This document shows, piece by piece, positions 5,647 to 42,926 of a stretch of 64,000 nucleotides of DNA. The position numbers were made by a program, and so were the translations under genes. This stretch comes from Amoebophrya sp. A120 (Eukaryota; Protista; Dinoflagellata), in the NCBI GenBank assembly GCA_905178155.1, contig CAJINV010000018.1:848609-912608 (forward strand), in the 5' to 3' direction. Position 1 is the first letter of the stretch. Every line of letters begins with the position of its first letter. The notes under the pieces are model-generated. The model had not been told where the DNA came from and did not search any database. It worked only from the letters and a program-made list of their open reading frames with translations.

Positions 5647-8417
5647 TTACAACGGATACCCGGCCGGTCGTAAATCTCCCGGGTACCCGATCCACCACTC
5701 GAACCCGTCTGTATTATCTCCAACCATTTGAATCCGGTTATTTCCATCTTCCCGAACGTTGGAGATCCTGAAGTGAAAGTCCACCAGTTGCTTAACATCT
5801 GTCTTGCTGTTCCAAACGGTAATTTTGTCACCCTTCTCGCTGTCGGAATGCTCAATCTCCCAGTCCCGCCAGGACGTGACTCGGTCTTTTCCCAAGTCCC
5901 CGGAGCTGTAGCGCCCCTTCCGGTAGATGACGTTTTCAATCACAAACTCCCGGTAGTGCTGCATGGGCGTGTAGATATGCACTAACGCTGGGCAAAGGTC
6001 GTCGCAATAGAGGCCGGACAGCTTCCAGTTTCCGATCTCCTTGTCCGGTGCGAACGCCCAGTCGCTATTGTAAGAATACGATGCTCCGATGATCGCCGAG
6101 GGAAGCGCTTCTTTATCCCAAGACTTAAACCTCGTGTGCAGAATCGTGATGTCTTTCGCGTTATCAAATGCAAAAATGTCTGGGTTTGGAAGGGTGCGCG
6201 GTTCGCCATGCAGCTTTTCCATGACCCATGAGGTCTGGAATGCAGCACCTAGCATGACAGATTCTGCGCGATCTCTCTCATGCCTATCCTGCATGAGAAA
6301 CTCCCGACCGACTTGGTCAAAACTGGCCGAGTTTTGGTAATCATGCAACACAGATTTTTGCATGCTTCAGATAGAGCATGACAAGTAGCATTCTTCCAGA
6401 CGCAGACCCAGACATTTTTACATTTGATACGCGTACACGTTCTGCAGGTTTTGCGGCGCCCAGCCCATCTGGAACACCGGGTCGTTCGGGCCTTTCCACA
6501 CGGAGATCCGCTCTATCAAAAGGAAAAATCCCCCCTCCCCAAATCGCAAACGAACTTTGTGATGCTGTATTTGAGTACACAAGTCGACTTGTAATGCTAG
6601 AAGGCCAAGAGACGCAGCTGTGGCCTCGTTTGCAGGCACTTTGTCATGCTGTTTCCCACTTCCAGCTGCCCTCTGTCGTGCTGAAGACGCAAGGCTTTCC
6701 CACGCCAACCAGCACTACAGTCCGCATCTTTTCCCTTCTAGCATGACAAAGCTGACTTGTGACCACAAATCTGCATCACAAATTTCTAGTTTGAGTATGG
6801 GGTGGGGGGATTTTTCATTTTGATACGCTCGTACTGAATGTCCGAGTGGTAAGTTTTCAGCCCGTCGTCGTTCGTGTGCACCAGACTGTCCTTGAACACA
6901 CTGCCCGGGTACAGCGTGAGCCCGTCGGTCTGCAAGAACCAGCCGCCGACTTGCTTGTAGTCCGTGGCGAAAATCTTTGGCTCGTTGTACATGTCGTGGG
7001 AATTAAACGGCGGGTCGGTCATGGTCACCCCGTGGAGGATAAAGGTCTGCTGCCCGGGTGAACCGTTCCAGGATTTCCACATGCGCAGGGACGCAGCGTC
7101 CGACTTCACACTCTCGTAGGATCTGTCGGGATTCGCCTGGTACACGTAATCAGACCCGGTCAATACCCCGTAGCCCGTCGCCGCGTAGGTCCCATTCTCC
7201 TCGGCGTATTGCCAGTGAACCGCAGATTTCACGTACGCCCAGTGCGCGAAGTGCACCCAGGCTTGGGATTCCGTCAGCGTCATGTGGTTTTCGCCGCGTT
7301 TTCCAGTTTTCCCTTGTCGGTTTGTGTCCATCCAGTAGACACCCGGGGGGAAATAGAGAACTTTCTTAGCGGATTTGTAGTTGTCCAAACTGATCGGGCC
7401 GGGTTGCATCACGAGAATTTCGTTCTCTTCGTAGACGGAAAAAGGGTCTTTCTCCCGCTCCAGCGGCGGCGAGACGAAAAGAAACAAGACATGTTTCGGC
7501 TCCCGGCCGACAATAGCGCCATCGGCCGCTCGGAAAACGATTTGTGACTCAATATCGTCGAACTCGATGGAGATTTGCCGGATCTTGGGGTTGGCCTTGT
7601 CGAAAGGGATCAAAAGCTCGATAGAATTTTCGTCAAGCGCTTTATCCGTGTTGACGACAATGTCCTCGTTGTTGAAAACCGGTTTGACGTGGCAACTGCT
7701 GAACCACTTTTTCAAATCCACCCCAGACTTTCCACCATCCCTGGCCGTGAGTTTCACCTTGATCGTGTTCTTGTAAACGATCTGCGTATACGCCATGGTC
7801 TGCTGTTTCACCAAAGCATCTATCCCATCGTCATCTTTCCCCGTAGGGATTCGGTCCAAAGGCCAGGGCCGTTGCCAGTCCCGGGGTCGTTGAATTTTCC
7901 CCTTCCCGCCGCGCGGAAGGGTCTCGAACACGAAAGATGGCTGCTCATCGACAGACACTTTCCAGTGTAAGGACTCCCGGACGAAGTCTGCCCGTTTCCA
8001 TCCGTCCCAGCTGTAGTCCGTCCGGCCGTTCGGCGGTTTGGGTTGTACGCAGAAGTCCACGTCGGGGGACAGGCAAAGCGACGTGTCCTCGGGAGCAGTC
8101 GGCGGGCGGACAATAAGTGGCATTTGCCCTCCAGGTTGAGGTTGTTGCAGTTTTTCTTTTTCATCTTCGGGATTCTTGACATTGATGAGGACTGAAGCAG
8201 TTTTACTACCAGGATCCACCTCAGGGCTCTTCTTTTCCTTTCCTCCAGGAGTGGTCGGCGCCCCACCTAATTCTTTCGTCGAAGAAGTTGTACCCGCGAT
8301 TACACCCGCCTCGCCGCTACTCGTATTAACCCAAGTGGACGAAACGGGAAGACCACATACAGGATCAATTAAATGTAAAAAGAAAGAAAAGATAAAGTGT
8401 GTTGCAGGGAACATCAT
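5647..8417 (-). CDS. Secreted glycoside hydrolase family 49 (dextranase/isopullulanase-like), 3 exons
   Basis: Signal-like MMFPATHFIFSFFLHLI; motifs LYFPPGVYWM, YKQVGGWFLQTDG, HTNDDGLKTYHS; splices restore QYE|RISVWKGPNDPVFQMGW and NVYA|KDITILHTRF. Confidence 0.85.
6162..6429. mobile_element. Introner family B
   Basis: TIR TATCAAATGCAAAAATGTCTGGG; TSD cgcgt/cgcgt. Confidence 0.95.
6514..6825. mobile_element. Introner family D variant
   Basis: TIR TATCAAAANGAAAAATCCCCC; TSD cgctc/cgctc. Confidence 0.9.
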
Positions 8418-10366
8418 TTTGTTCTTCAGCTGGAGCAAAAAATCGAAAAAGGCCAAGGATCTAGTACTAGTAGTAGTACACTGATATAATATACGAATTC
8501 AAAAAGAATGCTTAATCCATAGTTTGGAAAATTTATTTTGGAGACCTGGAAACGCAAGTGCGGCGCGCATGCTTCAGCCAGAAGTTTATCTAGGACGAAA
8601 AAAACTCAATAAACCGATCTATATCTTGTTTCTCTTTTGAATAATACCACTTTGAGAGCAAAGTTGTTTTCAATTTTGATCTGACACGTTGAGGATCTAT
8701 TTTTTTAGACCATTTAGATCGTAAATCTTGTTGCAAAACACACACACGAAATTTCGCATGGAAACAGAAACCATTTTAGCCTTTAAGATGGGAATCAGAG
8801 GAAGCCTCACACGAACTCAACCTGAAAAAATCGCACCGACTCGGAGCCCTCATACCGATGAGAATAAGTAGGCAAGAAAAAAGACGCACTGCGTCCCCTG
8901 CCACCTCACCGATTTTTGTCTCGTTGCCCTTCGAAGCACCAACCAGGAAGAGAACAAAGTTTCGGAGTGCTCGCTTGATGAATTGTCAAAGAATTCCGAA
9001 GAGAACAGGATTTCGAATTTTAGATCGAATTCGAATTTTAGATCGTAAAAAACAATACGATCTAGACAAAATGAAAAGTAGAAGCAACGAGATTTTGGGT
9101 CCGAGACCGAGACGAACAATGAGGCAACCAAAGTATAGCATGATAGTACCAATCACGATCGCTAATCTGTATCTGGCGCTGACCCTTCTGCTCGACCAAA
9201 AATAATCGGAAGCCGGTGGTGCACCACGTGCATCGCGACAAGCGCGACTAGTTTTTAGTTTCTTTGCATTTACCTGGGTTCATTTTCGGCTTGTGCGAAA
9301 AAAAGTTCCCGGAAAAAACTTCGTGTAAAACGAAAACGTAGCTGTACGACGGACTGACAAGTATCAAAGAAATCTCCAGCTGCTGCTGTCGCCAACAACA
9401 GAACAAGAATGAAACTTTGATGTGCTGGTCGAAATCAAAAACTTTACTTTTCACGAATAATCTTCAATATCTGGTACGATGTCCTTACTGACGTATTGGT
9501 TTAAAGGTTTCGCGACTGCGTGAGGATCTGTTGCAGGTACAAATCAGGAAGAAGCCGCTCGCCGTGGCGCGACGAGGGATAGTTCCACTTTCGAGATGTT
9601 GTTCCTTCTGGTGCACGGGGTTGAAAAAAAAACCGCCGTCCGTTTTTTTTGCGGATCAGAAAGGCCAGCACTGCGCTTCGAGTGAATACGACTACGGCAA
9701 GAGAACTCTTAGTCTTCAGCTTCACGTTAAATGAAGAGCATGCACGATTTTATTCCTGCGCATCGGATTCTCGCTGTCGCTCGTTTTCCTTTTCTTGTCC
9801 ATCCGACGTTACTGTTGTTGCGGAACGAAGAATTGCTGGTGCTGTTGCCCATTTACGACGGCTCCGCGTGGCCACGAAGACCCCAGACTGTTGGGCGTGC
9901 CGTGGTGTATGCGACGGTAAACGTACTACTTCTAGCCATATTTTTTTTTTTTTACCATCGTTCAACATCAAAAGAAGAAGTTCTCATGGCAACACAAGCA
10001 GGTTGTGTTTGTGAAGGAAGCAGGCCGCATCAGACCATGAATGTTCAATGTTTCTGACTCGGAGCCGTGACAAAAAAGATGCAGATTTATTTGAGATAAA
10101 TTTAGTTTTGCTTCATTTCGCAGCATGACAACAGTTGAGGAATTTGCAACGAGAAAAGTGTGCTCGTTGACCCGCCAGGTCTTGATGGCAATTGTATGCT
10201 AAAGCAGAAAAATTCATCACATTTCATATGGTGGGATGGGCTGCGAGAGCCGCGCCGCCTTGGCCCCCGACGTCCTATGGCTGTGCCGCGTATGGAGTGG
10301 GTCCCTGTGTTGATTTTTTGATACCGATGACGATGCAGCAACGCCTCACAAATACATAGATACTAG

Positions 10367-13300
10367 TCATGGCGCGCGCGCGCTCAAAATCTTCCATGCA
10401 CAACACGTGGCTTCTAAATGAAGTTGAGGAACATCGTAGCGCTTCAGAAGAAACATTTTCTTGAACTTAGTCCCACCTGGTAGCGATCTGCTCCGTGGCT
10501 TGCTTTGCAGAGAGTGCAAAGCGGCAATCGGCCGAGACCGTAGCTGCTCGTAGATGGCTTGGTTCTGCGGGTAATGCGGATTATGGGCGTACACGTCCGG
10601 AAGATTTGCAGCTGCTTGTGGCCCTCCTGCTGTACCAAGTGGCCCCATGTCCAGCCCGCTATGCATTACAAAAGTATCGTACTAGTAGAAATAGCATTAC
10701 AAATCTTTCCAGAGTGAAAAATGCAATTTGTAATGCTGAATAGGCTAAGAAACCAGATTTGTCATGCATGACTGCAATTACTACGCGTACGATGCTTTTG
10801 CACAGGATACCCGCCATGAAACAGCAAATTCGAGTTCGACCCGATCGTATGAAGTGCGAAAATGTCTGGGTCTGCAGGGTGGAACTTGTAATGCTGTCTG
10901 CGCATTCTGAAAATATCTGTGTTGCATGAGCAGCGAGAGGAGTCAGTTCTTGGCACGCGGAGAGGGCATTTCTGATGCGTAATTAGCATCAAGAAGCTCT
11001 CAAAAAATCTGTGATGCTAGCACCAGCATCACAGACCTCACGGGTCATGCAAAATGTGCATGACACGTCCCGGCTCTTCCAGACCCAGACATATTTGCAT
11101 TTGATAGATCGCGCCTGCTGCTTGTTGCGAAGCTCCTGCTGCGAGGGAGCTGTTGTACTGGTAGTGCATTTGCATCATCTTCTGTTGGTGTAATTCTTGC
11201 TCCATCTGCTGCTGTTGCTGGAGTTGCAGCTGCCGCATCGCGGGGTTGTACTGTTGCTGCTGCTCCAAAAATTGTACTGGCGATGTAGAGGAACTTGTCC
11301 CCCCAGCAGCATTATTGCCATTCAAATTATTCCCACCACCAAAGTGATGCTGTGTTGGTGTAGTTGTACTGCCTCTACCGGCGAAATGTTCTTGCAGCAG
11401 ATGCTCCCTCGCCATTGCCGCGCGCCCGCCTGGAGGCACGGATCGGGGCCTCGTTGAGGAGCTGGAGGATGCGCCAGCACCGGAAGATGAATTCATGCGC
11501 AGGGCTTGCGCCCGTCGCCGAATTTGGTTCACCTGGTCCGTCGAGGAAAAATCGAAATTTCCGTGCAGCAAGTTTTCCATGATCTCCTTATGCTCTGGAT
11601 CGCTCTGCAATTGCTGCATCAAGGAGGAAGCTGCTCCACCCGCCCCGAAGTTATTGTCATTGCTCCCCAATCCATCATAACCCCTTCTGCTCATCCGGCC
11701 TCGCGCCGCGTGGTAACTTTCCACGGCCTCCGCGATGTCCACGTGGTCGTCTTCAGCGCCAAATCGAACTGCTTTTTGGATCGATGACGCTGTTTGGGGC
11801 AGTACTGGCACGGGTTCCGAAGAGGAGCCTCCTCCTCCTCCTGTTGGCTCCGTCTCGCTCATGTTGGGCGGACTCGTTTGCGGCACGGCCTGCTGGTGCT
11901 CCCCCGCCTGCTGGATCATCAGCTCGCCCTGGTACGGTACTACCCCGTTCATCAATACCGGCATCATCATCCCGTTGTCAGAATGCGCGCCACTGGCAAG
12001 GTTCTGCAGCGTATTAGCCGGTATGGGCAGCTCGGTGTCGACGTAGTGCGGGGGGTGTTGCTGGTCGTTGTCAACACCATTTGAGTTGGTGTTGTACTGC
12101 TGCATCTGCCGTTGCTGAAATTCGAACTCATCCGTCTGGTGCCGTTGGTGCTGTCCGCCGCTTGCTAGGGGCGTACTCGAGCTGGAACTTGACGGCTGGT
12201 TCCCTGTGTATAACGGGTTGGACGTTGTGGTAAGAACCACATGCGGATGCTGGTGCAGCGCACCACCAGAACCTCCAGCTGCACTGGAACTACTACTCGA
12301 CGTACTGTAAACGACCCAATGCTGGAGCAACCCCAGCATGTGCTCGATCTGGTTTCGCAGCCGCACCTTCGTGATGGCCGGCATGCCCTCGCTCTGCTGG
12401 ATCTCCTGCAGTTTGTCCAACGCGGACTCCCACTTCGTGTGCAGGCTCTGGTCGAAGTGCCGCTGCTTCTCGGACATGCTGACAAGTTCGGACCGCAGCT
12501 GCGCGATCTCCCGCGCCTCGTCTTTGCCGTCTCGGATCCGCAGCTCCTCTTGCAGTGCCTCAATCTTGGAGTGCGCCATATCCAGCTCGTTCTGGTACGC
12601 CATAATGCTGTCGTCGCGTTTATGCAATACAAATTTCCCGTACATGTACAAAATGCATCACAAACTTCGCTAACTTTGAATGCCAAACTTGTCATGCTGA
12701 CTAAGATTGAAGGCAAGTTTTGTCATGCAGAGACAGCATTTGTACGTGTACAGGAAATTTACTGTGGATAGCGCTCGCGGAGGCGCTGGGTGAAAGTCCG
12801 CATGATGTCCCGCTGCTTGAGTAGAAGCGACTTGTATCTGGTCGTTGATCATGGGGAGGGTAATAAATGTGTAGTGACGCTGCATATTCATATTCGTAAT
12901 TTCATCCGTTAAAGTTCGACACAAGTAGTTGCAGAAGTGCTGAAGAAGAAAGAAGTGACAATACAATCGAATACATTTGTTAATGTTAACTCTTCTAACA
13001 GACATTAGACATAGTTCTACCTCTGTATCTGCTTCCGGTCCTCGGTGATGGTGGATTTTTCACCCTCGAGCTGGGCGAGCTTTTGTTCGTATGCACGGTA
13101 AAAGAACAAGTATCGCAATGTTCGCAATGGCACTACTTAACACTAGTTGTAGTTCTAGATGTATGACTTGCATTTACAAATTTCTTCAACCTAAAATGTT
13201 ATGATGGATCAGCATCAGTTACATGCACAACTTTAACTGCAAGTGCAATCACGACGAGTCTACGATTTTTCCTTTGCTTTTGCACTGAATACTTCATAGT

Positions 13301-17935: not shown

Positions 17936-20900
17936 CTACTGCCCATTTCTCATGGCTACCTCTTCCCTCCAGTGTTGTAGTATGTTGTTTGCCGTCACCG
18001 TGATATTTGGATTCGGCACCCATCCGGTCAGCTTTCGCAATTTCGAGTTGTCCGCCAACAGCGTTTTCTCGTCGGCCGAGCGCATATGAGAGTGCACAAC
18101 TCCCCCTCCCCCCCATTAATATTTACATTGCTTGACTTCCGGGTTCTGGTCCCGCCTACCCCCCGGCGACAGGTGACCTTGACAGGTGACCGCGACAGGT
18201 GACCTGGACAGGTGACCTCGACAGGTGACCTTGACAGGTGACATTGACAGGTGACATTGACAGGCGACCTTGACAGGCGACCTTGACAGGTGAGCTTGAC
18301 AGGTGACCTTGACAGGTGACCTGGACAGGTGGCCGCGACAGGCGAGGCGAGAGGGTAAAGCAAAGGCGAGACCAGCGCCTGAGCGCAAATATTTATATAT
18401 TTTACACGCCAAATGCCGACGGGGGAAAATGAAAAATAAATTAAAAGCGCCAAAAAAAAAACGCAACGCACAAAATGAAAAAAAACACAACCTGCCTCCA
18501 TAAAAAAAGAAGTCTTTGCGTTGCCATGCAAAAATCTTAAAAAGCGGCTTCCTCTGCAATGCACGGCCAGGAGACAGCTGCTTACTTTGCTCTGTGGAAT
18601 CGGAAAGGCGTTGCGCTTCAATGTTAGAGAACTTTTTTGCAGCAGCCACACAGAGATGTCTACTCTGCTTCTATTTTTGTTTTTTCTTGCAAAATGCAGG
18701 GCGCCTAATTCGCCCTTTTTCCACTAGCGCTTCGCGCACTGAGCCAATACGCGCGCGCCTGGTGTGAGGCGAGGGGCGGACGCTGTCCGCCCCGATGCCG
18801 AACACCCTTCCCCCACTAGCGTTTCGCGCACTAAGCCACTACGCGCGCGCCTGGTGTGAGGCGAGGGGCGGACGCTGTCCGCCCCGATGCCGAACACCCT
18901 TCCCCCACTAGCGCCACTAGGGACGAGCACAAGGCCCCAGCGTGGGGACCCTGTCCCCACGCTCGGGTGGGCCTTGTTTGTCATGCAAAACCCTAAACCC
19001 AAGTGCTTCCCTGTGGCACTGTTTGCATGAGAGAAGCCGGAAGCTCAAACAGCAACATACTAGGCGCATTGATTTGCCATGCGCAGGCTCCATGTGATGT
19101 GCTGGTGTTTGTATTGCTGTTCATGCAATACAAATGAGGGGGACGGGGGGTTGTGCACCCTCATACCGCAGCCTGCTCCTGTCGAACTCCAGATTTATCG
19201 GAATCTTGGCTTCTTTTGTCAGCAGTTGCAGCATGTCCTTGATCGTGTACCCAATGCCCGACCCGACGTTATACGCCTCACCGGGTTTCCCTATCCGGCA
19301 CAACTTCAGAAACACCGGGGCGGAATCCGCCACATCCGTGACGTCGCGCGAGGTGGAAAGATCCCCGTGGTAGAGCGTGTAATTTGAATTACTGCTGGAT
19401 GAAGATCTTCCTGTCGCTTCAGGGTGAATAGAAGTTGCGCTGCAGGTTTGGTTGCTGTTCGTTTTCTTAATTTTGCAGGCATGCTCCAAATCCTCGCGCT
19501 CCCGCTCTGCCTGAGACTCCAGCTCGGCAATCTGCTTCGCGAAATTTTGCAGGCTCAGCTGGTCGGTGCCGCCCTCGGCCATCTGGATAAAGATCCGGGC
19601 CACGATCGTCTTCAGATTGTAGGTTGTAGCGCGCGTATGGTGGCGAAACAGTCTTGAGAACAACTAAGCGTTTTTGCACGTTGTATCTTCTATGACGATG
19701 ATCATCAGGAACAAATTTTACATCTTAATGCTTGCACATACAAAGCCACCACGACCCCATAGAAGACAGTCAGTGTCATACAAGAGGGCAGAGAACAATA
19801 CGAGTTGTTCATCACCCCGAATTTTGAGTGCTGAAAAAAAGCAGGACGTCCTCCAAGACTTATTCACTAACATAGTACATCATGGCCAGATTTTCTTGCG
19901 CAACCTTGGAAACCTGAGATGGATTGAATCAGCAATCAACATCTTCAATATCACCAACTTAATTTGCAGTAGCACGTACCGTGCACAACAACAGTACGTC
20001 GGAAGCAATCCTGTAAAGCACCCAAGCACGTTCCTCTTGCAGAAACACAAATCGACAAAAGACAAAAATGCCCTAAATACCCCATATGGCGTGAAGGGTT
20101 TCAGGTGCGCGGTTTCTGGTATAGGCGTTCCCTCCCAATCGATCGCTGCAGCGCCGTATTCCGCGGAGGATCCCGCGACCAGAATTCGCATCTCCTTCGA
20201 CACGTCGCCGCTGTTCTGCAGCACCCGCACGGCTTCCAGCACATTCAGGGTGCCGATGATGTTCACATTCAAAGACAATATCCTGTGCAAAAGTTGTATC
20301 GTATTCGTACTCGTAGTAATCCCATTCATACATTACAAATTTCTTTCTCAAGTTAAATCCGCATTACAAATTCTATATTCTCTTTCTGAGGAAATTTGTA
20401 TTGCAGTTCATACTAGTACGATACTTTTGTAATGCATAGACAAGGAGGCGGACCCAAAGGAGACGCCGTTGATGGCCTGCGCTGCGAAGTGGAACACGTA
20501 GTCGGGCTTCAACTTTTTCGGCTATCCTGTGCAAACGTGTATCGCACTTCTACTGAACAAACTGATTGCAATCTTGCATGACAACCCTACCTTTTTACCT
20601 GAATTGGCATTACAAATTTCAATTTTCTTTCTGATAAAATTTGTAATGCAATTTGTACTAATACGATACTTTGCAATGCATATCAGCAGGTTGGTCACAA
20701 AAAAAGAATCCGTCACGTCCCCGTACTCCAGCTGTATGCGGTGGACGTAGCCCTTCAGGTTCCGCAAGTTGGAACGCCACCGAGCCAGCACAATAACATT
20801 TTTCGCAGACCCAAATTCGCAGTTGTCTACGGCGTGCTTCACCAACTGACTCCCGATCATGCCCGTGCCCCCGGTAATCAAAATTTGCTCCGTGACGCCA

Positions 20901-27800: not shown

Positions 27801-30443
27801 ATGAAGATGAACCCGTGGTACTCGCGACCCCTCTGCTAGACGTATGGTTTTGGTTCCCTGCTCCGTGCAAGATGTTACTTGCCGAGTTCGACCTCTGACG
27901 GGCTCCGTTTAATACACCTTGTCGGCTTCCCCTCTCTGGACTAGCCCGACCGCGCAAAGGGGTTGTGTTCGCAGACGCTGAGACCGCGTTAGATGTAGTT
28001 GTTCCCCGAACAGGCGTTGCGCGCCGCCGCGTTCTGCTGTTTTCGCGAGTTGCAGTAGAGCCGGGGGCTCCTCCGCCCATGTGGTGATTGCTCGGGACGC
28101 GGCGCGCCGGGGAGGCCGTGGGCTCTCGACGGTCGGACCGACCTGTGTAGAAGTTTCGAGGGAGCAGTTATATTTCAGGTGCAGGAACGGATGACAACTT
28201 CCTACTGCCCTGTGATCACAGGGAAAAAAATAAGAAACGCGAGCGTCGAAGCAGCATATTAACAACTCTACGTATGTCTATTTTTTGATGATCACGTACG
28301 AAGAACGGTAGTTCCTATCAAGAGTACTACCACGTTGCAGGCTTGATTCCCGGCTATTGTACTGCAGAGTTGTCCGATCCTGGCTGCGTAAGCTAGCCCG
28401 TCGCGCCGCGTTCTGTGGCCCTGTGTGGGGTACTACTAGATTGTTAAGAGGCGTGCCCGCAGCAGAGGAGCCGGTCGCTCCGCCCCCGCCGGGTGTCGTC
28501 CCGTTCATATTTTGGCCACCAACAACTCCGCCACCCGGTCCGGCCGGCGGCCGCAGCATCTTCTTGTTCTTCAACGCACTCAGCGCGTTCGCCAATGGCG
28601 CGGACAGATTCTGACTTCCGTTCAAGTCTTGGTCACCCAGAGCTGCTATCAAATGTAAAAAGGTCTGGGTCTGGAAGGTGGTAACTTGTGATGCTGTCTT
28701 TGGATTCCAAAAAAATCTGTCTTGCATGACTAGCAAAAGGAGTCCAGTTTGTGCTACACGGGGAGGGCATTTCTCATGCGGAATAAGCATCAGGAAGCCT
28801 TCTAAAAATCTGGGATGCTAGGGCGTGCATTACAGGCGTCATTGGACATGCAAAATATGCATGACAAACCTGGCAATCTTCCAGACCCAGACATTTTTGC
28901 ATTTTATAGCTGCACCTTCATCTCCGTGATCCGCGTGTTTTAGTGCTTGTGCCAGGACGCTCTTCTTGTTCGGCTGATTCGCATTCGCTCGCTGGTGGTG
29001 GTGTTGACCGCCCCTGCTATAGTTCTTTCTGGCGACCGACGGTCCGCCGCTGGGTTGCCTTTGTGGGTGCAGCTGCGAAGATGTGTTATAAAAATTCTGT
29101 TCGGCGTCTTCGCTATGACGTTCTCAAATGTTACATTCTCAACTGTTACATGATTTGTCATCCAAATTTGCCACCAAGATCGCCACGATTAAGCTGCTTC
29201 GCATGACAAATATCCGAAGGGCTAAACAGCATCTAAATCTGTGCCAAATCTGTAATGCAAAAGGCGCAGTCTTCCTCCTTTCATTTTTGCCGTTCTTGCA
29301 TTTACAAATTTATGTAACAGTTGAGAATGTAACATTTGAGAACGCCATATTCGCTATCAAGATGGTACGAAGTGTATCCCTCTACAACTTCACCGCCCGG
29401 AGTAGACGACAAAGCTTGCGTCGGTCTCGTTGTTCCGGTGGCAGATGAACCACCTCCGATGATTCCCGTGCTGCCGAAGTTCTGCAAAACGGCCCCGCCA
29501 CGCGGTGGATTAGAAGTCGTTGTAACGAGGTTGACGCTGGGCACCAATATGCCCGCGACGAGCTCCTCCTGTCGCTTGGCTCTCTCTTGATTTTTCGCAC
29601 GATGGAAATCCGCGAGCTGGCTGTTGGCCACGGTTGTGTTGGGACCCTGATATGAGTTATTTGCTTTTTAGACGACTTTTGTACCACAAAGGAACAAGAC
29701 CTCGTCCATATTTATATTTTTACACCCCTGACGCACATGAAATTGAAAGAGCTCCTCGTCCTCCTTCATTATAGTTTCATCAATTTCCTCCCATCATCAA
29801 CCGGTCAAGAACAAGATGCGTCTTCACGCTTCTATTCTTGCTGCCAAGTACCTTGCCCGGCCCCTCGCCTCCGTGGAAGCTCGGACCATTTAAAGATGGT
29901 CCTCCACCGGTGTTCACCACACCCTCGCTCGAAATCATTATTCCAGATGAGGCGTTCGTCCTGGGTTGCGGCAAGGTTGCTCGGGTACCCGGCGGCGCTA
30001 TCTTAAACTGGAGAAGATCTGGAAGAGGTCGTGGGATACAGAGAATGAAAAGTAACTTACAGCATCGGCGAATTATGCATACATACTTATAGAAGTGATT
30101 CATCAGATGTACATAAAAGAAAGTCCTGGTAAGACCGTTCAAAAATACTCCGGCTCGCCTGCTGCGGCAGCACTGGCTGCGTGACTTGCATCGAGTAGTT
30201 GGGTTTCGGACCTGCTCCTGTACTAGACGACGAGGAGCTGCTTGCCCCGCTGGCGCCTGACAGCATGACGGACGCCATGGGCGCTTTCAGGGGTGGCGTG
30301 TTGGCGAGCACTGGACGGGGATTCTTCATTTGCTGCAAACCTGTTGCACTCGTTGTGCTCGTCCCGGCGATGGTGTGAGCGCCGTGCTGACCGCCGCCCT
30401 GCTGGGGCCGCGTCATGCGCGGCTGTTTCGGAGACTCCAACAT
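21840..30443 (-). CDS. PP2C (PPM)-family phosphatase-like protein with long low-complexity/coiled-coil N-terminus
   Basis: NQDDF, YAVFDGFGENG, VGSIGDSRVVL, ALSKDHT..GEAQRL, ITR|HLG, LLILGTKGLWN, DDVTAIAVSL*; 5' exons linked by in-frame introner removal; start approximate. Confidence 0.8.
21971..22189. mobile_element. Introner family E
   Basis: TSD attgc/attgc. Confidence 0.92.
22275..22535. mobile_element. Introner family B
   Basis: TSD cttca/cttca. Confidence 0.92.
22721..23591 (+). repeat. GC-rich minisatellite built on GGGGATCCGCC (about 19-20-bp units)
   Basis: Dozens of copies directly visible. Confidence 0.95.
23990..24935 (+). repeat. Tandem repeat of about 120-145-bp units with a variable number of 12-bp GGAATCCTCTGY subunits
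   Basis: Recurring AACTTGGGCCAGAGGATTCCTGAGAGGATTTTGGAATCC. Confidence 0.95.
25854..25994. mobile_element. Introner family A
   Basis: TSD ccagt/ccagt. Confidence 0.9.
26073..26234. mobile_element. Introner family A
   Basis: TSD aaaca/aaaca. Confidence 0.9.
26654..26892. mobile_element. Introner family C
   Basis: TSD gatga/gatga. Confidence 0.92.
26944..27223. mobile_element. Introner family D
   Basis: TSD aggtg/aggtg. Confidence 0.92.
28647..28908. mobile_element. Introner family B
   Basis: TSD gctgc/gctgc. Confidence 0.92.
29114..29349. mobile_element. Introner family C
   Basis: TSD ttcgc/ttcgc. Confidence 0.92.
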
Positions 30444-31348: not shown

Positions 31349-33333
31349 TCACAGCCGCGACAACACCTTGGTTGTCGTCGCCCCGCCAGCCGCTCTCTTC
31401 TTGTTGTACTCCATCACACTATTCCGGGCCTGTCGGTATCCTGTGCAAAAGTATCGTACTCGTATTCTTGCAATCACGCATTACGTATTTTAGTGAAGGT
31501 AAATCAGCATTACAAATTTTATTTTTCATGCTGAGGAAATTTGTAATGCATTTTATACGAGTACGATACTTTTGCAATTCATAGTCGGCTCCGCGCGGCC
31601 GTTTCCGTGACGTCCTCGTGGCGGTCGAATTCTAGGGTCGCAGTTATCAAATGCAAAAGTATCGCACTCGTAGTAATTGCAGTCATGCATTACAAATTTC
31701 TTTGCTAAGGTAAATCCGCATGACAAGTTTCATTTCTCATGCTGAGGAAATTTGTAATGCATTTAAATTTATACGAGTACGATGCTTTTGCAATGCATAG
31801 CAGTCAGGCAGACCCGATTCGTGACATCCAGACAGTACACCTCACACACCACGGTATGTTGTTGATCATCTTCCGGGTGTAGTTGTTCTTGCGGTAGTTC
31901 TAGTTTCTTAGATGTCACAACTTCGGGGCCGAGTTTTCTTGGCTGTTCGAGTTCATCCTGCCCGTGGAGAGTACTATCAAGTTCTTGTTCCTGCGGCTCT
32001 TTTCCCCCGACTTCCACCACGTCTCTGCCTGCAAACAGGTCCTCCTCCCGGTTTTCGACCACACTCGCGACCCAGAGGTACCGGAACTTTTCCCCGGAGA
32101 AAAGGGCGTAGTGCTTTTGGACAGAAACGTTGGTCAGCACGTAGTCCAGCCCGCGCGTGTTGTCCATCAGCAAATCAAGGTACCGCATGACGGTCCGGTA
32201 GGCAATTTCCTCCAGACACCCGGTCACGAAGGCCGTGTGCACCTCAAAGCCCCCGTGTTTCTCTTCCAGCGAGGGGTGGTGAATCTCCTCATAGTCCAGG
32301 GAACTAGTAGTTGCCGTCAAAGAACTGCGAGCAGCCGTCGTTTTATTTGCCGACGATGAAGTTCTTGCAGGTGATGAAGAGCCTTCTGGCGCACTTTCTT
32401 CAATACTCGCTGTCGTGGCCGCCTTATTCATCGGCACCCTCTCCGTGAACCGGTCCCTTGTGTCGAGCAGAAAACTCACATCCCAGAAAAGCGAGCAGGA
32501 GTCCCGAATCCAGTTTTTCAGTTGCTTTTGGCCTGCTGCTTGTCTTGTCGAATAAACGGGCACATCATCAACTACTTGCGATGGTTGCAAGTTCTCATTG
32601 GAAGTCGTGGGCGAAAGCACCAAATGAGAAGTACTTGAAGATGTTCTTGCCCCCGCCGGGGTGACAGTTGTTGACTCATCACGCCCCCGTGCGTTGTTCC
32701 TCGCCGCCCCATCCGCCTGCTGTCCTCCTGCCCTCGCGAAGTCCTCGAGGGAGCACTCCTTCACCCAGGATTTGTTGTGGATCAGGATCAGCGACCGGTA
32801 CCGGGAAAGCCACAAGCGCACCCGGGAAATGCCGTCGATCCCCGCGGTGTCGATATCTGGGGGAAACACCTATGCAATGCAAAAGCATCGTACTCGTATA
32901 GATGCATTACAAATTTCCTCAGCATGAGAAATGAAATTTGTAAATTTGCCTTGGAGGCAGGATTTGTAATGCAAGACTTGCATTTTTTATACGAGTACGA
33001 TACTTTTGCACAGGATAACACCGCGTGGTTCGTGATGTGCTTGGCCATCCAATGCGGATAGTCGAGCAAGATTTCCGTCAGCTTGTGCTCGCCGGACGAA
33101 GCAGTGGCAGTGCCACCGCCACCACCATAGTTGCCGGTCGTGTAGGACGCTCTTGGAACTACGGGGGCGGGGAAGTTTGCGTTCGAGGACCGTTGTGCAG
33201 AACCAGCTCCACTATCGGGGACACCAGGTACCACCTGGCCGCTCCGCGTTTTTGCGAAGAATGGAAAAACAACGGCGCCACTCCGCCTCCTCTTACGCGG
33301 GCCGTTATTGTTGTTTCCATTATTTCGAAACAT
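31349..33333 (-). CDS. Uncharacterised protein, 4 exons separated by 3 family A introners
   Basis: Continuous frame after removals: NHAV|FPPDID, CLTA|TLEFD, ARSR|QARNS...VLSRL*. Confidence 0.75.
31437..31583. mobile_element. Introner family A
   Basis: TSD gtcgg/gtcgg. Confidence 0.92.
31645..31799. mobile_element. Introner family A
   Basis: TSD gcagt/gcagt. Confidence 0.92.
32871..33017. mobile_element. Introner family A
   Basis: TSD acacc/acacc. Confidence 0.92.
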
Positions 33334-35154: not shown

Positions 35155-36288
35155 TACGGCAGCGCTCTCCTCGGTGTTGGAGTTGGAGTTCTTGGGGGTT
35201 TCATCTTACATTCTGTTCTCCCATTTTTGCCATTGATGTGGAGAAGCCGTACACAAAATATCTCCTTGACTGCAATCAACATGTCGATCAAAAATTCTCT
35301 GGTGACCACGCCACTCGCGTTCTGGTGTCCTTTGCAGGTGGGTGCGGGTCGTGCCTCAAAGCTCCATAACCTCATCAAAACATCTACTCAGCGTGAGGGT
35401 GTATATATAGATTTCTTCTTTTAGACGAGCACGACACGCCTGCAGATGTTGAGCTGCAATTACTACGAAGAACCCACAACTACATCCTCGCTCTATTAAG
35501 AACAAGATGGCACCGCAATAGACTGCATGTGCCCCCTACTACAAGCCGGCGGCCAGCACACGTCATCATCTCCTGTGCTTTTTCTTTTTGATAGCTGCGA
35601 TATTTTCTTCTTATTTTGTCAACACACACTTCCTACTTTGGGAAGCAGAGATGTGGGTTTCTCATTTACATAATTCGTGGTAACATGTCCCGTAGTGATG
35701 GTCGTTCCGAATGAATGTCCCATGATGAAGAAATGAGAACGCCGTGGTACTTGGTACTTAGACCTCCCGGCTGCTTCATCCTCCGGCGGACGCGACACAG
35801 TCCGTGACGCCCGCCATCAGGACCGGTCGCGGGTAATCGGGATGAAAAATCTTGTGTAACCAGGGTTAGTTGGTTACGGTTCGTACTACTTCTACTGCCA
35901 GCCACGATGTTGGGATGTGAAAGATTGAATGACGACTACCTGTACCTACTCAGTGTCGTCGTCTTCGATTAGGATTATTCGAAAAAAATACGGGGGGGGT
36001 ATGGAACGCCAACGCGGCAGGCACAGTAGTCGGTGAGACCACGATGCGCGGAGCAGAGAATGAATTCATATCTGCTTCACCTCTTCACCAGGACTAGAAG
36101 TAGCCGTATCGCGGAGCGGACGCGCAAACTGAACAAAATGGCCGCGTGTCGTGCAGTTAGTAGAAAAAATTAATAATTGTCGCCGTGGGGAACAAATATG
36201 ATGAATAAAATCGGGAGCAGCAGCTCTTCGTTCACATCAGAATAACAGCACGCCCTGACCCTGTGGTCGCGGTCTTTATAATTGGCCC

Positions 36289-39200
36289 TCAACTTTTCAA
36301 AAACCCGGCTACGCAATCGGCGACGTCTTTGTTTTTACACGCGGCGGTGAGCTGCATGAGTATTCTGCCCTGGTTGTCTTTCCCGATCAGGGCGCGGCAC
36401 ACTACCGAAAACCCGCCCGCAAAGGTCCCCGACAGCCAGAGTTCATGCGCCGTTCTCGAGGGGTATGCAATACAAATTTCCTGTACATGTACAAAATGCG
36501 TGACAAATTTTACCAAGTTGGAGCATGCCACTTGTCATGCTGAATAGGATTGGAAGAAAAGTTTGTCATGCAGATACCACATTTGTACGTGTACGGGAAA
36601 TTTACTGTGGATAAGGGGTCTACGGTGTCGGTTTTTTCACAGGCCTCCATACCCATCGTATTGATAACACCTTCCACGGCCTTTTCGATCGAGTTGTACT
36701 CCAGTTGCAGCTTCACCATCTGCAGAGAATTTCCATTTTCCTTTAATTTCTTTGTAGTGATCGTTCCCGTGCAAGCTGCCCAAGCACACGTCAACGCAAG
36801 ATGGAGATTCTGAGTAGCATCATCAATACACGCAAGAAGACAATGCGAAGTATGATTCATACTTCACATTCAGTGACTCTGAACATACGAAAACCAATCA
36901 AAGCAAGTACCGCGCTTCCCTGTGCCTTCAACTGCTCGAAAAGCGGTTTCACCTGGCCCGGCGGAAGCAGGGCGGGGCTGACGTAGTTTCCCGGTAATAT
37001 CTCCGCGTTCTCGAGCTGCGTTTCGTCGGGAAACCCGATGTCGTCTCCATCTTCGAGTTGGTTGTAGCACAGCTTGCGCTATCAAATGCAAAAGTGTCTG
37101 GGTCTGGTTCTGGAAGATTGCGAGATTTGTCATGCTTGTCTGGCATGACCAAAAAATTTGTGATGCGTGTCCAAGCAGAGACACTTTTGCCTGTCATGCA
37201 AAAACGAAGTTTGTCATACGAAAAACGCAACACAAAAAAGCGCAGATATGTCTCATGCTTGGCTGCGCATTGCAGAGCATTCACTATTCCCAAGGCAGCA
37301 CTACAAGTTTCCAGACCCAGACATTTTTGCAGTTGATATGCACGGCAGCGACGCCGCCACGATGCCCTCGATTTTTTTCTCCAACACGAGGTATGATGAT
37401 TTGTTTTCGTTAAACTGGATCACTTCGCTCGCTTTCACCGACCCGACCAGGGAAAATTTGTCCGCGTCCTTGGGCAAAATGGTCGCCTGCACCTCGGCGT
37501 CCGCCAAGCCGACGCCCTCCAAAGTGTTGGTGATGTAAAACTCCAGCACGATGTGTATGGAACTCTCAGACGTTACATTCTAAACTGTTACATGATTTGT
37601 CATGCAAATTTACCACCAAGATCGCCGCGATTAAGGTGCTTCGCATGGCAAATCTACGAAGGGCTAAACAGCATCTGAATATGTGCCAAATCTGTAATGC
37701 AAAAGGCGCCATCTTCCCCCTTTCACTTTTGCCGTTCTTGCATGACAAATTTATGTAAAAGCTGAGAATGTAACATTTGAGAACGCCATAATGTGCCGCT
37801 GGAAGATGTGCTTGATCAGCTGAACGGAATACTCCGCCTCCAGTTCGGTCACCGGCGTGGGCTTCGTGCACGAAAGAAGATTACCTGGTAGAAGTAGTTG
37901 TAGAAGTACATCTACTAGTACTACTTTATAGTACACGACAAGAATGCTCAAGATCTTCACGGCTTCAGCTTTTTCACACTTGCTAACAAGTTGTACATCA
38001 AGAGCAGCATCATCATTCTATAGCTGTGGGTAAACAATGAGATGAAACCCTAAATCCTAAAACCCCGAAATCTTCTAGAAGCGTCTGTCGTTCTTGGAGA
38101 CAGAAATTCATTTTTGCAAAAGATCACCACTTGACTACTAGTAAGTGGAAATACGAAAAAAACATATCAGACGGACGAACGGACATAGAAAATAATCGCC
38201 CTCACCTATAGCCCCCGCAGCGTTCCCGCCGAAGAGCGGAGCGATTTTGCTGAGTACCTCGGTCGGCGTTGTGGTTGGCTTCGAGACCGCCGCGGCGACG
38301 TCGCTGACCCCCGTCGTCTATCAAATGCAAAATTGTCTGGGTCTGGAAGAATGCGCGATTTGTCATGCTGCTTTTCCATGACCCATGAGGTCTGGAATGC
38401 AGGACCTAGCATGACAGATTCTGCGAGACCTTTCTCATGCCTGTCCTGCGTGAGAAACTCCCTCCCGACTTGGTCAAAACTGGGCGACTTTTGGTAATCA
38501 TGCAACACAGATTTTTGCATGCTGCAGATTTAGCATGACAAGTTGCAATCTTCCAGACCCAGACATTTTTACAATTCATATCGTCTCGCCCGGCGCGCCG
38601 CCCGCCAGTTGCGCGTGGTGCCCGGCCAGGCCCTGCTCCTTCTGCTCTTCCAGCCTCTTCTTCTCGAGAAACTGCGCATAGGCCTCGGGCGTGGGTAGGT
38701 TCGACACGTCGATTGGCTTATTGCGGAGGTCCGGCACCGACATCTGTTTTTCGCAGAGGTCAAACAGGGCGTCAACCGAGAAGTCTTTCAGGGGCTCCAC
38801 GACGACGGTGAGGTAGTCGCCGTCCTGCGGATTCTGCTGCAGCAGCGAGGACTTGTAGAGATTGATACGGTATCAAATGTAAAAATGTCTGGGTCTGGAA
38901 GAATGCGCGATTTGTCATGCAGCTTTTCCATGACCCATGAGGTCTGGAATGCAGGACGTAGCATGACATTGGTGGTCTACGGGCAGGACGTCCCGGTGGC
39001 ACGAAAGCCGATAGTACAAGTTACTATAAACATGTAAAAAAATATAATATAAAACGAGAAAAAACCTTGAGCCAAAATGGCTACCAGGACGTAGCATGAC
39101 AGATTCTGTGCGATCTCTCTCATGCCTATCCTGCATGAGAAACTCCCTCCCGACTTGGTCAAAACTGGACGACTTTTGGCAGCCATGCAACACAGATTTT

Positions 39201-42200
39201 TGTATGCTTCAGATTTAGCATGACAAGTTGCATTCTTCCTGACCCAGACATTTTTACATTTGATATACGGTCCCGCACTTCGTCGTCGTTGTCGTTTTTG
39301 CCGCACCTGTTCGTGTTCGTTTTCGGTTTTTATTGTCTATCGATTTGCCATGCAGAAAGCCCCCTAAATCGGTAACTTTGCCATGCAAGGTAGATAAAAG
39401 AGGAATGAAAAACTACATAGCGCGGCGAGCAATTTCATGAAATGCAAGTTCTCTTGGTAAGCGAAAAACTCCAAATTGAATTGTACTCCAACAGCGTGGC
39501 AATATCTGATCGGAGGGACGGCACTTTTAACCCAACCTTCGTCAATGCGTCGGCGGCGGCCGCTCGGAGGTATGGCAACGAAGAATAAAAGCTCTATCAC
39601 AACTATCGATGCCTTTCACCCAAGAATAGGTCGGTCTCGGTACTGCACACATGCAACGGCATTGCATTATTAGCATTTCTGCAAAATACGACAATGCGCG
39701 GCAGTCATGTTTTTCTTCAGGTGAATGATTAAACCACGCACGTTCTTTTTCAACATTACGCGCGGAAGAAGCGTGCAGTATTGGATGTGGCGTAACATGT
39801 GCATTTTTAGACACGATAGTGATAGGAAAAAGCACTTTTTCGTCTTCGTAGCACCAGGGCGTTTTCTAGAATCAACCGGTTGTACATGAACCGCACGAAT
39901 TTTCCGGGCGACTGCTGCAAGGGCACGTTTTCGCCGAGAAACGCCAGGATGCGCATGCACAGATCCGGGTACTCGCAGTCCTCGATGAACTCGCAGAGGT
40001 GAAGCAAACCCTCTTTTTGCGCGACGGCGGACATTTTGGGGTACTGGATCAGGGAGACCATGGCTTCCACCAGGTCCTTTTTGAAATCCAGCGACCCTTC
40101 CTCGCGCAGGTTGGTCGACAGAAAGTGCATGATTATCATTTGCAAAAACGTCCCCACACCAGAGCCAAGATGGGAAATCTGCTAGACAAATCAGCCAGCT
40201 TTAGTCGTTTGGCATGACAAGTTTGTCCCCGTAGTGTAATCCTGTTTAGGTAGTTCAGCAGCATCACAGATCTAGTCGATCATGCTGATTATAGCATCAC
40301 AAATCCCAAAACACGACTAGAGAATGCCTCTCATGGCGCTCCGCATGACAAACTTTTTTGGCATGCAGATTTGCATGACAACTCTGGGGTGGGGACGTTT
40401 TTACCCAGAATAATGATGACCTTGTACTTAGTCGGGTACTGGAGCCCCAGGGACTTCACCGCCCGCACCACCTCGATCTTGAACACGTCCGTGATATCGG
40501 ACATGAAACTGGTTATTTGCTTCACTAACCGCTCCACGTTGGACTCATTCCCGGTCTTCAGAAGGGACGTCAAGGCCAGGGTGGCAGTACCTAGAATTCG
40601 TTTCGGTCATGTTCGTGCTCCTGCCATGCAGTGGTTCTACTTGTAGTTTTTATTCATATTTTGATCTTCCTTGTCTGTCACTAGACCACAATAATCAAGC
40701 ATCATGATGACAACGAAGAGTCATTGTCATTCTTGTTGCTCACAACTACGCAAAACCGGTGCAGCTATGTATCTTCTATACTTCTGTTTGGGTCCGACAG
40801 CAGGGGCTCCATGTCCTGGTTGCACCTGGTCACCAGTTCTGGTCTATCCTGTGCAAAAGTATCGTACTCGTAGTAATTGCATTTGCAAATATGCATAATT
40901 ACAAATCTCCATCCTAAGGCAAAACAGCATTACAAATCCCACTTTTCCTCTTGCCAAAATTTGTGATGCAGTCTATACTAGTACGATGCTTTTGCAATGC
41001 ATATGGTCTGTGTTGCGCCAGTTGGTTCAACGTGCGCGCGGCGGCAAACCGCATCACAGGCTTCGCCGACGTCAGCCCGATTTGGAGAATCTTTGGGATG
41101 TAGTGATACATTACGTCCGTTGTTTCATAGCGGTGGATGCTCGAGGAAGGTCACAACGAGGAGGTCGTGACTTTTCACATTATCTTCTACTTGTGCCAAC
41201 ATGCGGATCATGCGTCTTGATTTCATTACACCCATCGACAACGAGGCTCGCGCCAGAAGAAATGCAGAATTCTTTTTTATCTTTTTTCTTTCCTTGCGCA
41301 TCGAGAAGCCAGCGTTTGCAAGGTCAAGGAGGGAGTTTAGGGTGGTCGTAGTGTGGTGTCATTGTCAAGTGCTACAACAGCAAAACCTAAACCAACCGTT
41401 GTGGTACAAAAAGAATAAACTATACATCCACAGCCCGTGCGAAATCCACGCCGAAGAGGTGATTTATGTGCGGGTCCTGCTTCGATTCCGATATTATCAG
41501 GTTTACAAACGCCCGCGCCGCCTCGTGCGTGACCATTTCTGCCTTCTGTTTCGCCTTGAGGCAACTGTCGATGTAGGCAATTAGCGGCTTTTCGATGCCC
41601 GGGTCGCGGTCTGGAGCCATCAGCGCGTTGGCGGCGTATCTGAAGTTGGTGGAGAAAAAAATTGTGATAACGATGGACAAAAGTTTATCGGTTTTGTTGT
41701 GCCTTGCCTGTTTAAGCAAGAAAGACGAGCTGCGTGTGCGTACTTACTACAAACGAAACAGACTTAGTATAAAAATCCTTGTCGAGGAAAAATAAAGGAA
41801 AGTCAAACACAAACGCGCAATATTTTTAGGTGCAATGTCGCAAGTCACGGAAAAATGCAAGTTTTTCATGCGAGATACGAAATAAGTGATAAGAAGCGTA
41901 TTTTGAACAAAGAATGAACCTGATGAGCAGGCACTCCGCCATGGGGTTCTTCAGTTGATTTTTCGCCAAATTGGTGATCACCTTGTGCAGTCCGAGGCGA
42001 TCGTTTTTCTTGATTTCGTACAGCAGGGCCAAGGCGTGGTACTGTACCATGGAGCTCCCCGAGGACAGCACCGTTTCCTGGATTTCGTTCACCCACCGTT
42101 TGATGTATGCATTGCAAATACGTCTGCGTCTGGAACAGTGCAACTTGTCATGCTGAATCTGAAGCATGCAAAAATCTGTGTTGCATGATTATCAAAAGTC

Positions 42201-42926
42201 GTCCTGTTTTGACCAAGTCGGGAGAAAGTTTCTCATGCAGGATAGGCATGACAGGGATCGCGCAGAATCTGTCATGCTAGGTCCTGCATTCCAAACCCCA
42301 TGGGTCATGGAAAAGCTGCATGACAAAAAATCGCGCATTCTTCCAGACTCAGACATACTTGCAATGCATATGATGACTTCCGGCACCATTTTGGTCAGGG
42401 AGATCCCGCACACCAAGCTGGAGGAGGCCACGAAGGGATTTTTGTCCACGATCGCGGTTTTGAGGTAGCGGTCCGCGATCTGGTTCGCGATCTGCACGTC
42501 CAGAATCTTGGACAACACCCGGATCGCGTTCGCGCGGTTGCAATCCGTCTTACTGTTCACATCCTTAATCAGGGATGAAGTGACGATGAACGCCTCCGTC
42601 TCCGCGGGCTCCAGATTCTTTATCACCAGGTACGTCAAACGCCGCAGTTTTGGGCTCGAGCTCTGGAACAGCTTGGTGACCCCGAAAAACAGGTCGGTCA
42701 TGTTGTCGCCGGAAAACCGCTGTCCCTGGAACAGCATGTAAAGAATCTTCGTGATTAGCCGGCAACATTTGTCGGTGTCGATCGGGGTCGCGTGGAAGGC
42801 CCGGGCTTCGAGCAAGAGGGTGGATTTGTCGCCTTGCCAGGGATTTACAAAGTCGCGGTTGTCTTCGTATTTCAAGTTGTCCCGCAAGGCAGACTTCAAC
42901 TTGTCAGAGATGGAATTCGCCAACAT
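36289..42926 (-). CDS. COPG: Coatomer subunit gamma (gamma-COP)
   Basis: DKSTLLLEARAF, LFFGVTKLFQS, VTSSLIKD, RANAIRVL, KRWVNEIQE, VQYHALALLYEIKKNDRL, LLKTGNESNVERLVKQITSFMSDI, LCEFIEDCEY, YNRLILENA, DDEVRDR, IKHIF. Confidence 0.95.
36464..36613. mobile_element. Introner family F
   Basis: TSD agggg/agggg. Confidence 0.92.
37080..37338. mobile_element. Introner family B
   Basis: TSD tgcgc/tgcac. Confidence 0.9.
37556..37790. mobile_element. Introner family C
   Basis: TSD atgtg/atgtg. Confidence 0.92.
38319..38580. mobile_element. Introner family B
   Basis: TSD tcgtc/tcgtc. Confidence 0.92.
38871..39265. mobile_element. Introner family B carrying a nested 116-bp insert
   Basis: TSD tacgg/tacgg; otherwise close to 38319-38580. 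Confidence 0.92.
38969..39084 (-). other. Spliced-leader-capped retro-insert with 17-bp TSD
   Basis: Starts GTAGCCATTTTGGCTCAAG (39084-39066); flanked by caggacgtagcatgaca at 38952-38968 and 39085-39101. Confidence 0.85.
39571..39850. mobile_element. Old, decayed introner
   Basis: TAT..GTA ends and weak TIR; removing it plus 5 nt restores ENALV|RAAAADAL. Confidence 0.65.
40134..40412. mobile_element. Introner family D
   Basis: TSD atgat/atgat. Confidence 0.92.
40845..41003. mobile_element. Introner family A
   Basis: TSD tggtc/tggtc. Confidence 0.92.
42106..42370. mobile_element. Introner family B, in opposite orientation to the 6162 and 38319 copies
   Basis: TSD tgatg/tgatg; removal gives PEVI|KRWVNE. 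Confidence 0.92.

Follow-up and report, generated by a model that had tools for sequence, protein, structure and literature searches.

Introners that are derived from transposons, carry target-site duplications (TSDs), and are spliced either way round have been described as introner-like element (ILE) classes 2, 3, 6, 7, 8, and 10 of Polarella glacialis and as the introners of Aureococcus anophagefferens (bioRxiv 10.1101/2020.10.14.339549), and copies in opposite orientations are also admitted in the survey pipeline of PMC9860276. The introners of the dinoflagellate parasite Amoebophrya sp. A120 are likewise transposon derived and TSD flanked. They are described as ~240 nucleotides (nt) long and hairpin forming, with an inverted repeat starting with TAT, seven looser bases, and a run of A, with 5-bp direct repeats, and with borders other than GT-AG (PMC7789003, Farhat et al. 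2021). According to the same paper, they fill ~17% of the genome, and A120 has U2, U4, U5, U6, and 83 of 89 proteins but no U1 small nuclear RNA (snRNA). The removal of tens of thousands of introns without fixed dinucleotides or a detected U1 is a puzzle, and the describing paper left the borders undefined (PMC7789003) because the TSD hides them, a difficulty that diverged TSDs solve. Here we analyze the orientation, removal, and junctions of the introners in one 64,000-nt stretch of A120 (the window), to which all element counts below refer; they are not genome-wide.

The repeats in the window are the published A120 TAT…ATA introner elements with 5-nt TSDs. The exon at 42372-42926 (minus strand) is 100% identical to the 936-amino-acid (aa) A120 protein P0001 and 90% identical to its A25 orthologue; exon identity assigns a second gene (P0103) to A120 as well. 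An initial scan for terminal inverted repeats (TIRs) gave 64 candidates, with ~35 expected by chance at the loosest cut, and self-BLAST was then used for curation, leaving 49 elements bounded by TAT…ATA. With one old element added from the coatomer gene and another four found through annotated proteins, the list came to 54 elements, which together make up 12.7 kb of the window. Since the 49 were curated with self-BLAST, the list probably lacks old single copies that lie elsewhere than in the three annotated genes. Perfect 5-nt TSDs flank 34 of 50 elements, against 0.17 expected when flanks were paired across elements; the TSDs are not due to chance. By position profile, the TIR consists of TAT, ~7 looser bases, and an A run, in whose place family C has TCTCAA. 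The A120 host, the direct repeat at the boundary (3 to 5 nt in the definition of these introners), the multicopy families (six in the window, A to F), and the noncanonical removal from mRNA all agree with the published elements. The TIR, fixed-length TSD, short length, and lack of coding content are also those of miniature inverted-repeat transposable elements (MITEs) and other nonautonomous TIR DNA transposons. No transposase family was found among 162 open reading frames (ORFs) of the window that were scanned, and PMC7789003 reports none in A120. Families A, B, D, and E carry the same terminal decamers on unrelated cores, and the two ends of one copy carry different decamers, a hint that ends have been shuffled among families that would share one transposase.

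The genes of the window appear to lie on the minus strand. A Pfam scan of the 75 longest ORFs per strand, out of 312 ORFs, matched 16 of 75 on the minus strand versus 0 of 75 on the plus strand, which fits the co-oriented gene blocks described for the A120 genome (PMC7789003). An Rfam scan of the window gave no matches.

An initial annotation of this DNA, made from sequence, had placed the family B copies at 6162 and 38319 in one orientation and the copy at 42106 in the other. Sequence identity confirmed this: in the same orientation, 6162-6429 shares 88% identity with 38319-38580, and 42106-42370 matches them both at 83% and 87%, respectively, as the reverse complement versus 54 to 57% forward. 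The orientation is well defined, because each copy is only 57 to 60% identical to its own reverse complement. The peptide MQKSVLHDYQ, cited in that annotation, indeed falls on the minus strand at 6363 and 38520 and on the plus strand at 42166, with no other occurrence in the window. All three host exons were correctly assigned to the minus strand; they belong to a GH49 dextranase gene (6162) and to the coatomer gamma gene (38319 and 42106), so that the last two share one gene in opposite orientations. A flip was also claimed for family A, and the copies at 20279 and 10660-10809 are indeed 74% identical as reverse complements and 58% forward. The end sequence used as evidence, TATCCTGTGC, turned out to be a good but imperfect marker of orientation: copy 26073 has TATCCTGTGC on the left with a core of the opposite class, and copy 62601 has TATCCTGTGC at both ends. 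We took orientation classes from cores, with 25 nt of each end stripped. The tabulation per family that had been called for, made here for the window, gave ratios of 8:4 for B, 9:9 for A, 5:2 for C, 4:1 for D, 2:2 for F, and 2:0 for E; with low-margin calls dropped, A was 8:8, D was 3:1, and F was 1:2. Within the minus-strand gene block, both orientations are represented in families A, B, C, D, and F, and this small window sample shows no orientation bias (A, 8:8; B, 8:4; p=0.39).

We used two contig runs with spliced pieces, X3 and X5, that we took to be RNA, a DNA-type run, X1, and the public annotation of the A120 proteins P0001, P0103, and P0101. Junctions were taken from contig-piece coordinates in X3 and X5, and this RNA-contig evidence spans window positions 25600-43200. 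Neither copy 38319 nor copy 42106 is present in the annotated protein P0001, and the same transcript contigs lack both, which bears out, on transcript contigs, the earlier claim that one introner family is removed in both orientations. In the coatomer gamma gene, both runs show gaps of 684, 121, and 718 nt between contig pieces, and 2085 nt overall. Removal of each element with one TSD, together with fitted GT-AG introns, gives 684 and 718 nt exactly, and the 121-nt gap needs a 285-nt intron, the length implied by the annotated protein. That protein lacks all nine elements of the gene, and its A25 orthologue is gapless across the junctions. One contig lacks three copies of family A, two of class - (31437 and 31645) and one of class + (32871); the exon between the first two is 56 nt, equal to the contig gap in both runs, and the 32871 junction is contiguous. 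Contig arithmetic in X3 and X5 accounts for 14 elements in all (three A-, one A+, two B+, two B-, two C+, one D+, one D-, one E, and one old element). Two further copies, 28647 and 29114, were not counted; the RNA gap there fits six different intron sets.

Of 12 removal lengths tried in the three annotated proteins, the element plus 5 nt was the sole fit for 24 of 25 elements; the remaining one had an end that was mis-set by one base. Removal of copies 6162 and 6514 with one TSD each brings two anchors to a spacing of 34 residues, the same as in PDB entry 1ogm. Reading frame and homology point to the removal of 6162, 10660, and 20279. An ORF-length test for flanking bases that leave with the element resolves length modulo 3 only, hardly differs from the plus strand (47 versus 46 of 54), and was not used as evidence. 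We conclude that removal restores the preinsertion message exactly, with loss of one 5-nt duplication. The element interior is dispensable, since the enlarged 395-nt copy at 38871 is still removed exactly. The enlargement is a 117-nt A-rich insertion (38969-39085) flanked by a direct repeat of ~17 nt.

Two explanations would place the loss of the elements elsewhere than in RNA processing. Reverse transcriptase can switch template across a hairpin between direct repeats, and the skips that result share with ours that they are noncanonical, blind to orientation, and missing one repeat copy (compare PMC2923612). We give this artifact very little credence. Stop codons interrupt all three minus-strand frames in 46 of 54 elements, nine elements sit in a conserved single coatomer gamma gene whose A25 orthologue is colinear, and elements whose TSD copies differ at 3 or 4 of 5 bases are still removed in frame. 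Excision from DNA before transcription is an equally improbable account. It would resemble the elimination of internal eliminated sequences (IESs) in ciliates, which also has inverted ends containing TA and restores the target site exactly. X1 contigs, however, pass from unique flanks into elements at a depth of 43 to 49, and the register of the junctions, described next, is polar to the transcript; a minor excised fraction may still exist.

A perfect TSD conceals the junction, whereas the two copies of a diverged TSD bracket its position. We expressed that position as an offset, the start of the intron relative to the T of TAT in transcript sense. Ten copies were informative. An offset of -1 fits all ten and no other offset does: 0 and -2 each fit seven, and the mirrored offset of -4 fits two and is excluded by eight. 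The chance of such agreement is ~0.005 under uniform offsets (with a six-fold correction) and 0.01 on annotation alone. From these ten TSDs, we infer that the intron is N-TAT…ATA-NNNN, starting 1 nt before TAT and ending 4 nt after ATA in transcript sense. The reaction appears still to be polar, in that the register follows the transcript and not the element, a point that the initial annotation missed. Imperfect TSDs at 12621, 56304, 59231, 62107, 63176, and 63612 are synonymous or uninformative; those at 18085, 19636, and 20523 are also outside the ten, and a PDB search for the 19636 site gave no match. The -1 register places U at intron position +2. In Table S4 of PMC7789003, all nine of the listed commonest noncanonical A120 motifs have T at +2 and none starts with TA, and all nine listed A25 motifs start with TT; the junctions in that table come from Hisat2.

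Removal could be real and two-way with a junction that floats within the TSD, mostly at -1 or 0, in which case the agreement of the ten copies would be partly luck or annotation noise. An offset of 0 is allowed by seven of the ten intervals, and PMC7789003 describes splice-site position as variable with respect to the hairpin (legend to Fig. 3). Copy 13090, which is outside the ten (no annotation or RNA coverage), weighs against a fixed -1, since its conservation with P0106 favors 0. Against a floating junction, three copies exclude 0, in agreement with their A25 homologues, three exclude -2 or lower, and eight exclude the mirrored register. We consider it improbable.

The elements do not have the GT-AG termini of U2 spliceosomal introns. 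When the junction was slid through the TSD, GT-AG was possible in 1 of 49 elements, GC-AG in 2, and AT-AC in 3, and no TSD position had a fixed base among the 49 copies. Under the -1 register, 14 of 54 elements start with GT and 1 ends with AG; intron +2 is U and +3 is A in all 54, +5 is G in 28, and there is no base preference at the first or last two intron positions. A at +3 is shared by five of the seven GT-AG introns listed in the window. Over their first 24 nt, the 5′ end and the reverse complement of the 3′ end show one base profile, and pairing between the ends is predicted on both strands, in 47 and 46 of 48 folds. The initial annotation attributed recognition to the terminal stem or to symmetric motifs. 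Removal in both orientations and the symmetry of the ends in profile and predicted folds partly support that proposal, in which stem and motif are not separable. It had also set two-way splicing against the polarity of spliceosomal signals. There is no paradox here, because terminal inverted repeats give the same signal either way and because Polarella and Aureococcus offer precedents (bioRxiv 10.1101/2020.10.14.339549).

These signals could be read by a nonspliceosomal endonuclease and ligase that would recognize the terminal RNA stem and cut with a 1-nt 5′ and a 4-nt 3′ overhang, as proposed for euglenid nonconventional introns. The pairing of the ends in 47 of 48 predicted folds would suit such an enzyme, as would the lack of sequence demand at the first and last two intron bases, the lack of a U1 snRNA among those found in A120 (PMC7789003), and the precedent of euglenid TIR introns with offset stems, which leave as nonlariat circles (PMC11282704). 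On the transcript strand, G·U pairs exceed A·C mismatches at 57:36 (p=0.04), and fold energy is slightly lower in 32 of 48 elements (p=0.04). The G·U excess is weak, however, and was not reproduced in a second count (21:16); in the interior, the ratio was 114:132 (Fisher p=0.29). In addition, old elements with only 9 to 11 of 20 terminal pairs are still removed in the same register and keep TA…A ends, T occurs at +2 in both A120 and A25 despite different TIRs, which suggests a donor-like readout, and the coatomer gamma gene also has six GT-AG introns that are spliced. We regard a stem-specific enzyme as rather unlikely, though it deserves more weight than the other alternatives.

We lean toward a model in which inverted-repeat transposons, lying either way round in exons, are read by their mirror-image ends and removed by a rewired spliceosome, in a -1/+4 register that is likely fixed. 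U6 reads donor positions +4 to +6. In the model, the 5′ end, N-U-A-U-(G/C), would align with the donor GUAUGU at positions +2 to +5, and the demand at +1 would be relaxed. Both ends would be brought together by the terminal stem, which may replace U1 snRNA. The stem end would set the distance to the 3′ cut, and the count may start at a branch on the first A of ATA, which lies 6 nt before the 3′ end. The modified spliceosome would thus find its ends juxtaposed by the stem, with symmetric motifs supplying donor and ruler. An inverted repeat shows the same TAT and ATA whichever strand is read, so that every insertion, at whatever 5-nt site, would be a ready-made intron. GTATGT is named as a donor in PMC2483917, from which it can also be derived that 5 to 7 nt follow the branch A in Yarrowia and Trichomonas; the inferred A120 cut, 6 nt after the first A of ATA, lies inside that range. 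The donor-like 5′ end, this 3′ distance, and the presence of U2, U4, U5, and U6 without U1 are why we favor a modified spliceosome. A broader claim, that A120 has a third splice-site mode needing no U1, GT, or AG, with the TAT/ATA stem as ruler for cuts at -1/+4 by either an altered spliceosome or a separate cut-and-ligate enzyme, is in our view possible but short of probable.

Several points besides copy 13090 weigh against the model of a rewired spliceosome. The RNA nature of both contig runs is a guess. Nine of the ten intervals come from the annotation, which was built from BLAT-aligned transcripts; they are thus RNA based and no independent line of evidence, and alignment errors could have entered them. 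Hisat2 placement within the TSD may lean to donor-like ends. The invariance of +2 U and +3 A is partly circular, since TAT/ATA was the criterion by which elements were chosen. ATA is preceded by C or G in 53 of 54 elements, so there is no constant branch consensus, and the 3′ dinucleotides are heterogeneous, of 15 kinds. Finally, a spliceosome would have to unwind a stable terminal stem.

If the model is correct, any copy at any site in either orientation is a perfect intron, and neither orientation nor target sequence would have limited the spread of the elements to ~17% of the genome at little cost. Given one transcript-polar register, the "highly variable splice sites" would reduce to a single rule, N-UAU…AUA-NNNN, with exact predictions for lariat mapping, and the diverged-TSD test scales to the whole genome with public data. 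The elements themselves are published; the likely -1/+4 register and the two-way use in A120 are new here, and two-way behavior alone is the less surprising of the two, given the reports for other introners. In the main text and supplement of PMC7789003 as searched, element orientation is not addressed ("orientation" there refers to genes or references), and the texts searched, with figures, subscription papers, and bioRxiv supplements outside reach, yielded no statement on orientation or a fixed register for Amoebophrya.

Coordinates of introner elements and host genes in the window. Offsets are intron starts relative to the T of TAT in transcript sense.
Feature	Position	Strand	Site or host	Evidence or remark
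Family B, forward class	6162..6429		TSD CGCGT; GH49 dextranase gene	Homology (1ogm)
Family B, forward	38319..38580		Perfect TSD; coatomer gamma	Missing from transcript contigs and P0001
Family B, reverse	42106..42370		Perfect TSD; coatomer gamma	Contigs, P0001; A25 orthologue gapless across site
Family B, forward, 117-nt internal insertion	38871..39265			Contig and annotated protein
Family B-related, reverse (weaker call, 8/11 pairs agree)	37080..37338		Imperfect TSD	Offset -3..0
Family B, reverse	10848..11106			Sequence comparison
Family B, forward	22275..22535			Sequence comparison
Family B, reverse	28647..28908			RNA gap compatible, fit not unique, not counted
Family B, forward	53955..54225			Absent from P0103
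Family B-related, forward	55645..55905			Annotated-protein fit
Family B, forward	56304..56565		Imperfect TSD	Synonymous, uninformative
Family B-related, forward	62843..63094			Absent from P0101
Family A, class +	10660..10809			Sequence comparison
Family A, class -	20279..20438		GDP-mannose dehydratase-like gene	
Family A, class -	31437..31583			RNA contigs, 2 runs
Family A, class -	31645..31799			RNA contigs
Family A, class +	32871..33017			Only one of 49 readable as GT-AG; RNA contig
Family A, class -	40845..41003		Coatomer gamma	Contigs and protein
Family A, class -	59024..59178		TSD differs at 4/5	Offset -1..0
Family A, class +	62330..62490			Offset <= -1; same Ser in A25 orthologue
Family A-like short element	62601..62723			Offset -2..+2
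Family F, class -	55046..55285			Offset -3..-1; same Ala in both A25 homologues
Old single-copy TAC…ATA (transcript sense)	39571..39850		TSD differs at 3/5	RNA piece ends at 39851; offset -1..0 (annotation, -3..0)
Old TAT…ATA	54407..54776			Offset -4..-1; same Ser in both A25 homologues
Old TAT…ATA	55345..55542			Offset -2..0
Old TAT…ATA	57788..58017			Offset -2..0
Old TAT…ATA	58174..58354			Offset -1..0
Diverged element	13090..13291		Kinesin gene	P0106 favors offset 0 (Glu) over -1 (Gln); one discordant case
Family C, class +	26654..26892			Also 13443, 29114, 37556, 56616 (+); 14731, 58710 (-)
Family D, class +	26944..27223			Also 555, 63612 (+); 40134-40412 opposite, in coatomer gamma
Coatomer gamma gene	36292..42926	-		936 aa; 9 TAT…ATA-type introns, both orientations, and 6 GT-AG introns
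GH49 dextranase-like gene	5650..8498	-		Hosts 6162 and 6514
Coiled-coil protein gene P0103 (PF27870)	53875..59491	-		Hosts 14 elements
Membrane protein gene P0101, 3′ part	61538..64000	-		Hosts 6 elements

Some features of the window lie outside this argument. A family F element at 18085-19165, inside a GDP-mannose dehydratase-like gene, owes its length of 1081 nt to a duplicated GC-rich unit and a tandem array of 13-nt repeats (18142-18384). Within P0103, the GT-AG intron at 57551-57716 has near-duplicated 5-nt flanks, TAA…ATG ends, and GT at offset -1, and is possibly an old element turned canonical; the 193-nt intron at 55975-56167 has no GT-AG slide or clear terminal repeat, and a GC-AG reading is possible. 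An intergenic block of 3.1 kb (49548-52634) is bounded by a 65-nt inverted repeat and contains a 21-nt satellite with the TTTTGCATTGCA motif of family A and B ends, as well as staggered inverted repeats (50889-51284); no Pfam family scored above the cutoff in its 12 ORFs, and no TSD was seen. GC-rich 19/20-nt satellite and a 114- to 126-nt repeat array (22678-23590 and 24002-25001) lie apparently in introns of a PP2C-like gene. The GH49 gene (5650-8498, minus strand) is dextranase/isopullulanase-like, in a dinoflagellate parasite, with 1ogm as its best PDB match (E=2e-54).

The closest parallels to the A120 introners come from several lineages. Yarrowia, Trichomonas, and Giardia set the 3′ splice site by a short ruler from an upstream motif, without an adjacent polypyrimidine tract (PMC2483917), much as proposed here; they keep ACTAAC and a terminal AG, whereas A120 elements have neither and their branch is hypothetical. 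The MITE-derived introns of Fritillaria borealis resemble those of A120 in having TIRs and TSDs and lacking GT-AG, and a modified U2 spliceosome removes them; the AG-AC/AG-AT preference, exonic TAC context, and U1 of Fritillaria (PMC11282704, PMC13326754) differ from A120, and none of these preferences is seen in the window. Euglenid nonconventional introns share with A120 a TIR stem that joins the ends, TSD-like repeats, noncanonical borders, and an unequal setback of the stem (PMC11282704). Their stem starts at +4 and ends at -6, their junctions are pyrimidine|purine, and they are excised as circles; the A120 stem runs from +2 to -5 (pairing predicted in 47 of 48), and the elements have no junction base preference, no CAG at +4 to +6, and no CTG at -8 to -6. 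The introners of Polarella and Aureococcus have G(T/C/A)-AG ends, need a fitting TSD, and show orientation bias (bioRxiv 10.1101/2020.10.14.339549). The A120 elements are, like them, introns in either orientation but lack such ends, with GT-AG possible in 1 of 49; any TSD works, and the two orientations occur without bias in our small sample.

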